Assembly: GCA_963844715.1 (NCBI GenBank)
Contig: CAWJPJ010000006.1
Coordinates: 512,001-576,000 of the forward strand
DNA: 64,000 nt
DNA from: an uncultured Phycisphaerales bacterium
GTDB lineage: Bacteria > Planctomycetota > Phycisphaerae > Tepidisphaerales > Tepidisphaeraceae
Reading direction: 5' to 3'
Made by a program: the position numbers. Shown here in pieces: positions 45,001 to 48,000 of the stretch; position 1 is the stretch's first letter, and every line of letters begins with the position of its first letter.

Positions 45001-48000
45001 TTGCAGACCAGCGCAAGCACCGAACATTCCGGCCCCTGCAAAAACTCCTCAATGAGAATCCGCGACCCCGCATCCCCGAATACCCGCTCCCGCATGATCT
45101 GATTGATCGTCTCCAGCGCATCAGCCGTTCGATAACAGATCGAAACGCCCTTCCCTTTCGCCAAACCGGCCGCCTTGACCACAACCGGCTCCTGCCGCGT
45201 GCTCACGTATTCCTCCGCCGCCAGCGGGTCCGTAAAACTGCGCGACTCGGCGGTGGGAATCGCCTGCTGCCGAAGGATTTCCTTGGCGAACCATTTGTCG
45301 GCTTCAATCTGCGCCGCGGCTTTGCTGGGCCCGAAGACACGCGCCCCCGTATTCACGAGCCGGTCCGTCAGCCCCATGGCCAGGGGATCTTCCGGGCCAA
45401 TGACGACCAGTTCGATGAGATTCTGGCGAACGAATCTTTCGATCTTATCGAAATCGGTGACCGCAATCGGAACCAGGTCCGCGACATCCGCGATCCCCGG
45501 GTTCCCCGGCGCACAATAAAGTTCCGTAACTCGCGGCGAAGCCGCCAGTTTCCAAGCCAACGCGTGCTCACGACCGCCGCTGCCGATGACCAATACTTTC
45601 ATGCCCTGAGCTTCCCAATTAAATGTGACGAGCAGAGAGTAACAGCCTATTTGCGCAAGGCAAGGAGTCGCTCACTCGCTCAAAATCCTTGGCACAGAGG
45701 GCATAGAGATCGCAGAGGGCACAGAGAAAGATAAGGTAAACGAAAACGCAAAACCAAAGCAATTAACAAAACGCATTTTCTCTGTGCCCTCCATGTCCTC
45801 CTTGTCCTATGTGCCAATGCTTTTTTGGCGAGCGCACAAGCCGCTCTCGGCGGCAATCGAGGGCAAATCGCGATCGAGACTTGCTTCCCCCCTCCCCACA
45901 CGCGACGATTCCGCCATGCCCGCGCCGGCCATCAATATCCTCCACATCACCACCAACGAACACACCGCAATCTTCGACGACCTCCTCGAACTCCTCACCG
46001 ACACGCTCGAGCAACTCGGCCATGCCGTGCAGCGGACGACAACTCATTTCGACCGCAGCCGCATCAACATCCTCGTCGGCCACACGGCCGCTCTCGAAAA
46101 AGAAGCCTACGACTCCATCCGGAGCAGCGGCGCGAAATACATCATCTTCCAAATGGAGACCCTCACCGACCGCCCCGGCATCCCGCGCCCGTCGCAGGCT
46201 TATCTCGACGTCCTGTCCCATGCCAACCAAGTCTGGGATTATTCGAAAAACAACCTGGCGTTCCTGGCCGCCCGCGGCTGCCGCGATTTGCAATTTATTC
46301 CCCTGGGCTATTCCCGCCGCCTCGAACGAATCGCGCATGCGGAACAAAAAGACATGGACGTCCTCTTCTACGGCGCCGGCAACGCACGCCGATTGAAAAT
46401 CGTCGATGCCCTCCGCGCCCGCGGCTTGCGCGTCGACGCCTTCTTCAAAGCCTACGGCTCCGCCCGCGACCAGGCCATCGCGCGAGCCAGGATCGTTCTC
46501 AATCTGCACAAGTTCGACCATTCAGAATTGGAACAGGTGCGCATTTCGTACCTGTTGAACAATCGCGTTTTCGTCATTTCCGAATCAGCCGAGGGAAACC
46601 CCTGGGGGGATGGCGTCGTCTTCAGCGACTACGACAAAATCGTCGATTGCTGCGTCGAATCTGCCCAGCCCGGCAAAGACGCCGCCCGCGTAGAAATCGC
46701 AACAAAGGGCTATGAGGCCCTAAAATCATTGCCGATCGGCGCGAGCCTCGAGGCCGCGCTCGCAAGGATCCAGTGAGATTTGACGCGACCGACGGAGGGA
46801 AGTAGCCTGCTCATCCGGAAGTTTTTCCGGGGCGTGGCGCAGTTTGGTTTAGCGCGGTCGCTGCGGCGACAGGCCGCTTTTCCGCAGGAGGCTCAGTTCG
46901 TTGTGACTTTATTTCCGGGGCGTGGCGCAGTTTGGTTTACGCGCGCTTGACTGGGGGTCAAGAGGTCGCAGGTTCGAATCCTGTCGCCCCGATTTGTTTC
47001 ACCTATACGTCTTGCGAAGCCAGAAAACCGGCCGCAGATATGTCGGCTCGTGCGAGGACATCATCAACCGCCTTGATCAGCACAACCGTGGCGAGTCCAA
47101 ATCCACCAGACACGGCGTGCCCTGGAAATTGATCCACCACGAAGAATATGCGACCCGAGCGCAGGCAACGCAGCGAGAACGATATTTCAAAACTGGAAAG
47201 GGCCGAGAGGAACTCGACCACCTCAAGGTTTAGCGCGGTCGCCGCGGCGACAGGTCGCAGGTTCGAATCCTGTCGCCCCGATTTGTTTCACCTATACGTC
47301 TTGCGAAGCCAGAAAACCGGCCGCAGATATGTCGGCTCGTGCGAGGACATCATCAACCGCCTTGATCAGCACAACCGTGGCGAGTCCAAATCCACCAGAC
47401 ACGGCGTGCCCTGGAAATTGATCCACCACGAAGAATATGCGACCCGAGCGCAGGCAACGCAGCGAGAACGATATTTCAAAACTGGAAAGGGCCGAGAGGA
47501 ACTCGACCACCTCAAGGTTTAGCGCGGTCGCCGCGGCGACAGGTCGCAGGTTCGAATCCTGTCGCCCCGATTTGTTTCACGTATACGTCTTGCGAAGCCA
47601 GATAACTGGCGGCCGATACGTCGGGTTCTTGCGAGGACTACGCCGCCCGCCTTGATCAGCACAACCGAGGCGAATCCAAGTCGACCAGACATGGCGCGCC
47701 CTGGAAATTGGTCTACCAGGACGAATATACGACCCGGCCAGCGCGTCAGAATCCGCTCAAAGTTACTTTCCCGATTGCCTTGCCGCTCTCCGATATGGCG
47801 TGGGCCTTCTTCAGGTTTTCGACATTGATGGGGCTGAGTGTCTGCGTCTGCGTGGAGCGCACTTCGCCTCGGTCAACCAGGTCTGAGACGCGAGTGAGCA
47901 GTCGTCCTTGCTCGGCCATATCCGGTGTCTGCCACATCGAGCGGGCGAACATGAACTCCCAGTGAAGCGATGCCGATTTTCGCTTTAGCGGCACTACGTC

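Follow-up and report, generated by a model that had tools for sequence, protein, structure and literature searches.

Tandem units of a predicted GIY-YIG nuclease gene, a GC hairpin, and a partial tRNA copy behind a tRNA-Pro(GGG) gene of a Tepidisphaeraceae bacterium

Introduction

What kind of genetic element is a very small nuclease gene that is repeated, together with pieces of a tRNA gene, directly behind an intact tRNA? The question is raised by a 64,000-nucleotide stretch of contig CAWJPJ010000006.1 (assembly GCA_963844715.1, positions 512,001 to 576,000) from an uncultured Phycisphaerales bacterium of the family Tepidisphaeraceae. This stretch is referred to here as the window, and coordinates count from its first base. 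A survey of the whole genome had noted three head-to-tail units of 289 bp behind a tRNA-Pro(GGG) gene and had read them as a tiny selfish element that inserts repeatedly into the 3' part of a tRNA gene without an integrase.

Two groups of GIY-YIG enzymes invite comparison. According to the available text of Chenal et al. (2025, PMC11893778), each single-domain Ssn enzyme binds hairpin repeats on either side of its gene, and its cleavage is confined to single-stranded DNA; these repeats (NTS/SRM) measure 20 to 50 nt, and >200 genomic copies are discussed. T-even phages encode SegB, a free-standing GIY-YIG homing endonuclease, among their clustered tRNA genes (PMC2330249 and PMC13096335); according to the latter, tRNA genes are where the enzyme cuts, and its action in concert with homologous recombination produces tandem amplification of tRNA genes and segB. 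Our literature searches found no description of tRNA-nested or tRNA-linked GIY-YIG cassettes.

Results

ARAGORN and Rfam (RF00005, 58.4 bits) place an intact tRNA-Pro(GGG) gene with a cloverleaf fold and without an encoded CCA at 46916-46992 on the plus strand, and TRF finds a tandem array with a period of 289 nt, 2.7 copies, and 94% matches over 46963-47736, which bears out the survey on the position and orientation of the units. The units at 46963-47251 and 47252-47540 are, as had been claimed, 100% identical in the repeat comparison, and the 30-nt 3' end of the tRNA indeed begins three times, at 46963, 47252, and 47541. Furthermore, a 20-mer that bridges the end of the tRNA and the start of the ORF is present four times, compared with zero times in 100 shuffles, which rules out chance as the origin of the array. 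The ORF of unit 1 (46994-47233, plus strand) encodes 79 amino acids; its TTG start, which the survey had put right behind the tRNA, lies 1 nt past the last tRNA base, and its TAG stop falls inside a copy of the tRNA D-loop. The ORF of unit 2 (47283-47522, plus strand) is the same over residues 1-79 in the repeat comparison and the query matches.

The tRNA copy carried by each unit had been described as the tRNA 3' end; that end is present, and the true extent of the copy is from the D arm to the 3' end, with a palindrome in place of the anticodon arm. In the first such pseudo-tRNA piece (47227-47281, plus strand; sequence and repeats D3, D4, and I1), a copy of the D-loop and D-stem, GGTTTAGCGCG, is followed by the palindrome GTCGCCGCGGCGAC (47238-47251), which stands in for the 17-nt anticodon arm, and by the 30 nt of the variable loop, T arm, and acceptor 3' strand (47252-47281). 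The second piece (47516-47570, plus strand; sequence and repeats) has its palindrome at 47527-47540 and its tRNA 3' end at 47541-47570. Upstream of the tRNA, a 28-nt exact copy of the tRNA 5' end, comprising 3 leader bases, the acceptor 5' strand, and the D arm to GGTTTA, is located at 46824-46851 on the plus strand (direct repeat D6 with 46912-46939, 100%). It is fused to a hairpin variant, GTCGCTGCGGCGAC (46857-46870), which differs from the cassette palindrome by one mismatch (repeat D4 and the list of one-mismatch palindromes), and repeat D4 as a whole (46846-46877) recurs with 94% identity at 47227-47258 and 47516-47547. Taken together, the segment 46824-46870 is a pseudo-tRNA 5' half, and the hairpins of the window begin at 46857, 47238, and 47527. 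A fourth, decayed cassette lies at 48944-49022 on the plus strand, as seen from a 20-mer match with 1 mismatch at 48946, alignment A3, and the sequence; it opens with the acceptor 3' end of the tRNA and TTTG, continues with about 45 nt from the start of the ORF, and, after an internal deletion, closes with TAGCGCGG and a partial hairpin. The D-arm part, the upstream 5' tRNA fragment, the fourth remnant, and the 13 genomic palindromes described below had all been overlooked by the survey. An ARAGORN call of "tRNA-???" at C6:955449 was considered as a further pseudo-tRNA and rejected, as it has no hairpin.

The ORF of unit 3 (47572-47745, plus strand) is broken: in alignment A3 and in two tblastn pieces that lie in different frames, one extra G causes a frameshift after approximately codon 18, and similarity fades near 47737. 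The frameshift had been noted correctly, but the identity of 76 to 83% reported with it has to be replaced by values of 93% over the first 84 nt and 83% over the following 113 nt. An assembly indel had been raised as a possible cause; a contig from a public run matches 47580-48165 with zero differences, so the break is not specific to the assembly, although this run may be the assembly's own source. The public-run contigs that cover the locus are short, low-depth soil-metagenome contigs, and none of the 4 runs found was listed as RNA. A single one of these contigs, with a depth of about 4, passes straight from 46851 to 46941 at another direct repeat, which suggests a repeat-mediated deletion in the population. 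That contig and the identity of units 1 and 2, flanked as they are by 30-nt direct repeats, would both fit a passive repeat, that is, an ordinary tRNA-adjacent gene whose copies stem from unequal crossing-over or replication slippage between tRNA-like repeats and whose nuclease plays no part. The survey's description of a small nuclease cassette that is tied to tRNA genes and has no integrase stands, but for the growth of the array, unequal recombination between the tRNA-derived repeats fits equally well as the repeated insertion that it had proposed, and its reading of the tRNA copy as a replacement 3' end is a conjecture.

Between unit 3 and the fourth remnant, a zinc-type alcohol dehydrogenase gene (Pfam ADH_N and ADH_zinc_N) is encoded on the minus strand at 47746-48768. 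It is present in 7 of 141 family genomes, with this genome (G000) counted (E <= 1e-40), and was not found in either same-genus genome; a copy in another genus is 86% identical, with DNA homology limited to 47736-48780. The dehydrogenase gene is probably a foreign segment outside the cassette proper. The four proteins scanned with Pfam between 45784 and 50264 are an upstream 330-amino-acid protein without a Pfam family, the GIY-YIG ORF, the dehydrogenase, and an HD-domain protein, and no tyrosine or serine recombinase is among them. tRNA genes are classic landing sites of integrase-borne islands, and, as in such islands, the insert lies between direct repeats of the 3' end of the tRNA and the tRNA is intact; the cassette differs in that its unit measures 289 bp, carries a nuclease, and has no integrase in this region, and an integrase-mediated tRNA island was rejected on these grounds. 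An Rfam scan of 46000-49500 (E <= 1) yielded the intact tRNA alone and no intron RNA, and a group I intron with a homing endonuclease in the tRNA gene was therefore also rejected. A scan of 46500-49100 with consensus patterns that may not suit the host phylum gave zero promoter-like sites and a single terminator-like one, which lies within the dehydrogenase gene.

The 79-amino-acid product matches PF01541 over residues 2-70 (48.7 bits with a cutoff of 22.6; E 9.6e-13) and is on this basis assigned to the GIY-YIG nuclease superfamily. Residues Y5, Y16, G18, R26, H30, N31, and E62 are invariant in 16 relatives; from the literature on I-TevI and UvrC, we take the catalytic roles to fall to the two GIY/YIG tyrosines, the arginine, the histidine, and the metal-binding glutamate. 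An AF2 model (pLDDT 89.9) has the order beta-beta-alpha-beta-alpha-alpha, with a three-stranded sheet and flanking helices. When it was searched with Foldseek, ranks 1 to 13 were all GIY-YIG domains, with 1ZG2 (UPF0213 protein BH0048) at rank 1, Slx1 at ranks 2 and 4 to 11, and HIGLE at rank 3, while the closest solved chain by sequence is UPF0213 protein EF2693 (phmmer, 1YWL E 1.3e-4; 1ZG2 E 0.069). Sequence and predicted fold together place the nuclease with the UPF0213/Slx1-like branch. The dN/dS ratio was 0.13 to 0.29 in the 11 of 21 pairs with a computable dS, which was saturated, and these values indicate that the ORF is under purifying selection.

A free-standing homing endonuclease of the SegB kind would cut the cassette-free, double-stranded tRNA-Pro gene, and double-strand-break repair would then copy the cassette in, with the hairpin merely destroying the target in the spare copy. 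The available part of PMC13096335 offers the precedent, with cutting in tRNA genes, at a motif that we read as T-loop DNA, as the driver of tandem amplification. The likeness includes a GIY-YIG gene among tRNA genes, tandem tRNA-nuclease amplification (with cutting predicted in the case of the cassette), and microhomology between the 3' end of the gene and the 5' region of a tRNA. In addition, the ORF has weak matches to homing endonuclease families, namely, TIGR01453 (E 1.4e-4, below the cutoff) and PHROG homing endonucleases (E 0.02 to 0.03). However, the protein stops after the catalytic domain, with no DNA-binding domain in Pfam or in the AF2 model, and its fold is nearer to those of Slx1, UPF0213, and HIGLE than to that of I-TevI, which was ranked, together with UvrC, below these three. 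SegB is phage-borne, is about three times longer than the 79-amino-acid ORF, and has a DNA-binding part. It is not known to have hairpin-marked pseudo-tRNAs, and 2.9 million viral contigs contained one relative of the ORF. Together with the hairpin and tRNA data below, this makes homing of the SegB kind an unlikely account of the array.

The survey had listed the hairpin as a short GC hairpin and undervalued it, as it is, in the sequence comparisons, the sole noncoding part that is kept across phyla and tRNA types. The palindrome GTCGCCGCGGCGAC has 13 exact copies in the genome, compared with an expected number of about 0.1 by our own estimate, and 139 occurrences in the 141 family genomes, compared with 16 for the reversed control. 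Its mean number is 4.0 in the 9 genomes with a Pro-type cassette versus 0.78 in the other 132, bearing in mind that related genomes are not independent, and it is found in many genomes without the ORF. Among 80 cross-phylum ORF loci, a perfect GC-rich hairpin is located within 200 nt of the ORF at 70 and on both sides at 25, and hairpins number 4.8 per kb close to the ORF versus 0.95 per kb farther off. A CGCC stem core occurs in 79 of 146 hairpins near ORFs, the stems being mostly of the form NNCGCC..GGCGNN; the outer pairs covary (GT/AC, TC/GA, CC/GG, and TT/AA), and the same 14-mer is present in Pro and Arg cassette pseudo-tRNAs of different phyla, while a more distant Asn clade has a different stem, TCCCGA..TCGGGA. 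A mere disruptor of a homing target would need no sequence conservation across phyla, yet the hairpin has it, and a passive repeat likewise leaves this conservation unexplained. The published SRM motif has 0 matches within 3 kb of the cassette, and the palindrome is contained in 0 of its 51 matches in the genome; with no motif match at the cassette, the hairpin was rejected as an instance of that motif. Complementarity of the hairpin 3' half plus AGG to CCTGTCGCC of the tRNA, seen at this locus, was dropped from consideration, as the tRNA-Pro(CGG) cassette of the same-genus genome G137 lacks it.

The ORF is patchily distributed in the family, and the survey's count of 17 of 141 genomes becomes 25 of 141 at E <= 1e-3, a number that takes in GIY-YIG types without a tRNA link. 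In the Pro-type and Asn-type subfamilies of the family, a matching same-strand tRNA is present within 130 nt at 17 of 19 loci, and tRNA remnants are found at the other two. The cross-phylum loci, which were collected by a profile search of genome contigs seeded with the Pro-type alignment A2, have a same-strand tRNA within 200 nt in 71 of 80 cases, before the ORF in 39 and after it in 32, compared with a chance linkage that we estimate at about 0.3% from 74 tRNAs in 4.55 Mb. ORF clades track tRNA type over phylum borders, both between Planctomycetota and Verrucomicrobiota and among Ignavibacteriota, Bacteroidota, Calditrichota, and Chlorobiota, a pattern that would also suit a homing endonuclease. 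One and the same design, an ORF with a hairpin and a broken tRNA copy, is seen again and again, at 14 tRNA isotypes and across many phyla; duplication of a passive repeat leaves this recurrence unexplained, and we regard that reading as highly improbable. Genomes of Melioribacter have 5 to 15 small GIY-YIG genes each.

Within the family, a tRNA-Pro(GGG) 3' half was found in 75 genomes, 3 of which have a cassette at it. In the same-genus genome G137, this tRNA is present and lacks a cassette; the flanks are about 73% identical, and the tRNA is inverted relative to the neighboring gene. An identical 42-nt tRNA-Pro(GGG) 3' half without a cassette occurs in 15 family genomes (G062 excluded), so spread of the cassette must be rare at best. 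A CAGG/CCTG variant of the T-stem was considered as a mark left by the cassette, through immunity or coconversion, and was rejected, as it is the common form and these 15 cassette-free genomes share the 42-nt 3' half. That the intact tRNA beside the ORF is the same as in empty genomes, and that the suspected immunity variant is common in them, also argues against homing.

It is conceivable that the ORF is instead a domesticated host gene, a small Ssn/UPF0213-type nuclease that is cotranscribed with tRNAs and serves, for instance, in the control of recombination or DNA uptake at tRNA loci or in guarding tRNA landing sites. Purifying selection and the tight packing of the ORF against tRNA ends on either side would agree with such a role, and the SsnA protein of Neisseria modulates transformation (PMC11893778, available text). 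Against it stand the presence of the ORF in no more than 25 of 141 family genomes, its absence at tRNA-Pro(GGG) of a same-genus genome, the frameshifted and deleted copies at the same locus, and the passage of ORF clades and a near-identical hairpin over phylum borders, and we think a host function quite improbable.

Discussion

The anatomy of the array, its conservation, the tRNA linkage, purifying selection, and patchy distribution are what was observed here, and we somewhat favor the view that the array is a small selfish cassette, made of a GIY-YIG gene, a GC hairpin, and a partial tRNA copy, that lives in tRNA transcription units. By analogy with the Ssn enzymes, the probable target of the nuclease is the hairpin of its own cassette, after which amplification and spread would proceed through the tRNA-derived repeats. 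Expression through tRNA processing, recognition of the hairpin, cleavage, and the recombination route are the steps that we infer. Without a promoter or ribosome-binding site of its own, the ORF would be transcribed together with the tRNA, and 3'-end cutting of the CCA-less tRNA would release an mRNA that begins 1 nt ahead of the UUG start codon. The UPF0213/Slx1-kind nuclease may, as Ssn enzymes do, recognize its own hairpin in single-stranded DNA and nick nearby, and the break would be mended by homologous recombination, for which the tRNA-derived repeats flanking the ORF supply the homology. Such repair could lead both to tandem amplification, as in the identical units 1 and 2, and to deletions, and DNA transfer between cells would allow the corresponding tRNA gene of a second genome to acquire a copy of the cassette. 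The functional tRNA would remain intact throughout, with the hairpin confined to spare copies. Several points count against the selfish-cassette reading: plain unequal crossing-over would give the gradient of decay along the array as well, the palindrome is found in many genomes that lack the ORF, the hairpin is shorter than the Ssn repeats and does not fit their published motif, the 15 cassette-free genomes with the identical 42-nt tRNA half speak for rare spread at best, and translation seldom begins at a UUG codon of a near-leaderless mRNA.

With regard to its design, the cassette nuclease resembles the hairpin-directed, single-strand-specific Ssn nucleases. As described in the available text of PMC11893778, these share with it a single-domain GIY-YIG protein of <100 amino acids (here 79, with the domain at residues 2-70), a gene that is flanked by one hairpin repeat of which more copies are scattered through the genome, and hairpin and enzyme lineages that vary together. 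The differences are that the hairpin here is 14 to 15 nt long and lies outside the published SRM motif, and that it has 13 genomic copies rather than the hundreds of Ssn systems; moreover, the solved structures nearest to the cassette nuclease are those of UPF0213 and Slx1. Nesting in tRNA genes, tRNA copies broken by a hairpin, and tandem arrays are absent from the main text of PMC11893778, which does not mention tRNA. Placement of the nuclease in cd10448 is a candidate assignment, and Supplementary Data 4 of that article flags whole genomes and not single genes.

Likeness to other systems extends to parts of the design. The array combines a nuclease gene, palindromes, and spare pieces of the gene beside which it lies. 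In fungal mitochondria, mobile GIY-YIG endonuclease ORFs sit at the end of an essential gene and bring a spare copy of the gene end, and in the mitochondrial DNA of Allomyces, which has double-hairpin elements, GC hairpins lie near, as at the cassette; there, however, the host is an organelle and the target gene codes for a protein. REP/REPIN-RAYT systems, which the discussion of PMC11893778 also mentions, likewise have a single-copy nuclease gene that is flanked by short palindromic repeats found also elsewhere in the genome, but RAYTs are HUH enzymes, not GIY-YIG enzymes, and are not known to be linked to tRNA genes.

More tentatively, and with somewhat less than even confidence, we suggest that these cassettes form a class of mobile element of their own, for which a tRNA gene would serve as promoter, RNA-processing signal, and homology landing pad in one, and whose nuclease would nick the hairpin of its own cassette where this folds up in single-stranded DNA, with that hairpin written into spare tRNA copies and other intergenic sites. 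If so, Ssn-type single-strand nucleases would be tied to a selfish life cycle in many phyla. A 289-bp unit without an integrase holds, in many phyla, the place at tRNA genes that is known from integrase islands, and the arrangement is a testable case of a protein-coding gene that is expressed by tRNA processing. If the hairpin is the site of the nuclease, the cassettes would give Ssn-type enzymes a natural role, provide a large set of enzyme/hairpin pairs with differing stems, and account for many broken tRNA copies and miscalled ORFs beside annotated tRNA genes. In the window, the ORF listing has such longer frames, one of which spans tRNA sequence (46922-47233) and another the pseudo-tRNA (47148-47522).

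Results

tRNA-Pro(GGG), at 46916-46992 on the plus strand (ARAGORN; 58.4 bits in Rfam), is followed by head-to-tail units for which Tandem Repeats Finder reports a period of 289, 2.7 copies and 94% matches across 46963-47736. The tandem 289-bp units described in the survey's finding were borne out, with 46963-47251 identical to 47252-47540. Unit 3 was, as stated there, diverged and frameshifted; its identity, however, was 93% and further on 83%, instead of 76 to 83%. Its frame is shifted by one extra G, and similarity to the other units is lost near 47737. The ORF of unit 1 (46994-47230, plus strand) begins with a TTG codon 1 nt past the tRNA end and matches PF01541 (E 9.6e-13). 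A 20-mer that bridges the tRNA-ORF junction is present four times in the window versus never in 100 shuffles, and a search of the whole source genome placed the ORF at the array locus only.

A copy of the tRNA 3' end is indeed present behind the ORF, but it is longer than the 30 nt originally given and starts at the D loop and D stem. This pseudo-tRNA opens with the D loop and D stem sequence GGTTTAGCGCG, within which lies the TAG stop of the ORF, carries the perfect palindrome GTCGCCGCGGCGAC in the place of the 17-nt anticodon arm and ends with the variable loop, the T arm and the acceptor 3' strand. The observation as a whole was confirmed, and further parts of the locus extend it. Upstream of the real tRNA, repeat comparison identified an exact 28-nt copy of the 5' tRNA end (46824-46851), to which a hairpin with one mismatch to the palindrome is fused (46857-46870), and a fourth, decayed cassette with an internal deletion lies at 48944-49022. 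Between unit 3 and this fourth cassette, on the strand opposite to the cassettes, is a zinc-type dehydrogenase gene that has an 86% identical copy in another genus; a search of the two same-genus genomes did not detect it. Since DNA similarity to the other-genus copy is confined to the gene itself (47736-48780, from the break point of unit 3 on), the dehydrogenase may be a gene-sized foreign segment inside the array.

A public soil-metagenome contig matches 47580-48165 exactly, so that neither the frameshift of unit 3 nor the junction to the following gene is specific to the assembly, with the proviso that this run is possibly the source of the assembly itself. In a single public-run contig (depth ~4), position 46851 is followed directly by 46941, with a 28-nt direct repeat spanning the join; this hints at a repeat-mediated deletion in the population. 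The intervening 89 nt, comprising the upstream hairpin and a spacer, are absent from that contig and uncovered by all contigs of that run. Unequal crossing-over and repeated insertion account equally well for the gradient of decay along the array.

The 4.55-Mb source genome contains 13 copies of GTCGCCGCGGCGAC, versus an estimated ~0.1 expected by chance. Eleven exact copies lie beyond the window, mostly in intergenic positions (for example, C6:316373, C6:1242208, C7:1064804 and C8:269164 on its contigs C6 to C8), as do variants such as GTCGCCACGGCGAC. Dispersed copies are often set within short tandem motifs (GAATGAC, CAGTAGA and similar), and the one at C8:269164 is 34 nt from a tRNA-Ser. 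A cassette has probably been lost at C6:973150-973420 (minus strand), where a 5' pseudo-tRNA fragment joined to GTCGCCGCGGCGAC lies behind tRNA-Pro(CGG) and no nuclease ORF is present.

Homologues were found in 25 of the 141 family genomes and include two tRNA-linked subfamilies, a Pro-type (10 loci in 9 genomes, at tRNA-Pro GGG, CGG or UGG) and an Asn-type (9 loci). A matching same-strand tRNA lies at most 130 nt away at 17 of these 19 loci, and the remaining two have tRNA remnants. The other GIY-YIG types matched mostly sit at loci without a called tRNA; two of them (L027 and L028) have a same-strand tRNA-Ala ~160 nt away. GTCGCCGCGGCGAC is common to Pro-type cassettes of several genera, while the Asn-type hairpin is TCCCGA-nnnn-TCGGGA, with co-varying stems. 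In genome G105, a complete pseudo-tRNA, with the palindrome in place of the anticodon arm, is called by ARAGORN as a tRNA with a two-base anticodon and is followed by the ORF and then the real tRNA-Pro. Some Pro-type pseudo-tRNAs (L010 and L029, in G007 and G086) have two hairpins, the second of which, TCCGCCGCGGCGGA, stands for the T arm.

Family genomes carry on average 4.0 palindromes with a Pro-type cassette versus 0.78 without, related genomes not being independent, and the palindrome is present also in family genomes without the ORF. The same-genus genome G137 has tRNA-Pro(GGG) without a cassette; with flanks that are ~73% identical and a tRNA inverted relative to the neighboring gene, this locus falls short of a clean empty site. 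The identical 42-nt tRNA 3' half occurs cassette-free in 15 genomes, which counts against reading the cassette as selfish.

A scan across phyla, using one genome per species and a peptide pattern unrelated to tRNA as the seed, yielded 80 loci from Planctomycetota, Verrucomicrobiota, Acidobacteriota, Bacteroidota, Ignavibacteriota, Patescibacteria and other phyla. A same-strand tRNA was located at most 200 nt from the ORF at 71 of these (39 before and 32 after it), with 14 isotypes represented. Partial tRNA copies are common, each with a 14- to 15-nt hairpin in place of a part. Perfect GC-rich hairpins lie at most 200 nt from the ORF at 70/80 loci (on both sides at 25), a density five times that further out, and the stem core is CGCC in 79 of 146 nearby hairpins. 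Outer pairs co-vary, and loop sequences differ; the exact 14-mer of the window recurs in tRNA-Arg cassettes of Acidobacteriota. As judged from sequence comparison, the cassette hairpin is under selection, since it stays constant while the silent sites of the ORF are saturated, and the sole factor shared by all hairpin-carrying hosts is the cassette's own protein. In a tree of the ORFs (87 rows, few columns and weak deep nodes), cassettes cluster by tRNA type across phylum borders, with the tRNA on either side of the ORF even among close relatives. A search of 2.9 million viral contigs returned one relative. L089 (Melioribacter sp.), from a genome with 15 PF01541 matches, has at 317-772 five hairpin-broken pseudo-tRNA-Cys copies in tandem (period ~99 nt), ahead of the genuine tRNA-Cys and the nuclease ORF.

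Among Pro-type relatives, dN/dS is 0.13 to 0.29, with dS saturated, and Y5, Y16, G18, R26, H30, N31 and E62 show no variation among 16 relatives. An AlphaFold model built from 8 sequences (pLDDT 89.9) is closest to the solved folds of UPF0213 BH0048, the Slx1 nuclease domain and the plant resolvase HIGLE, with I-TevI and UvrC ranked lower, and the closest solved chain by sequence is UPF0213 EF2693. On the strength of these neighbors, the protein belongs to the structure-specific branch, consists of the catalytic domain alone and is not a two-domain homing enzyme.

Discussion

Comparison of sequences supports well the interpretation of this locus as a selfish cassette array, each cassette consisting of a 79-aa GIY-YIG nuclease ORF, a GC hairpin and a partial copy of the neighboring tRNA. 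No description of tRNA-nested cassettes was found in the literature searched, but there are two close precedents. Ssn enzymes, a family of single-stranded DNA nucleases, are single-domain GIY-YIG proteins of ~94 aa that bind a hairpin repeat flanking their own gene and also scattered in the genome, and they cleave only single-stranded DNA, adjoining this repeat (PMC11893778); the main text of that paper does not mention tRNA. The cassette shares this design, which is a likeness and not established family membership: its hairpin is short compared with the Ssn-type site and is not fitted by the published motif, SRM, and its nearest solved relatives are UPF0213 proteins, which counts against settled membership. 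The other precedent is phage SegB, whose cleavage sites lie within tRNA genes and which, together with homologous recombination, gives rise to tandem arrays of tRNA and segB (PMC13096335).

By geometry and analogy, the ORF is probably carried on the tRNA transcript, and 3'-end processing of the CCA-less tRNA would release an mRNA beginning just ahead of the UUG codon. The nuclease would then work at its own hairpin in single-stranded DNA, and repair via the tRNA-derived repeats could lead to tandem growth and deletions or, after DNA transfer, to copying of the cassette into the same tRNA gene elsewhere.

It is of note that a 27-nt repeat fitting the SRM search motif occurs at 12 sites in the source genome (for example, C6:366299 and C7:1130339) and that a second stand-alone GIY-YIG gene, of a type not linked to tRNA, is located at C6:428939-429154 on the minus strand.
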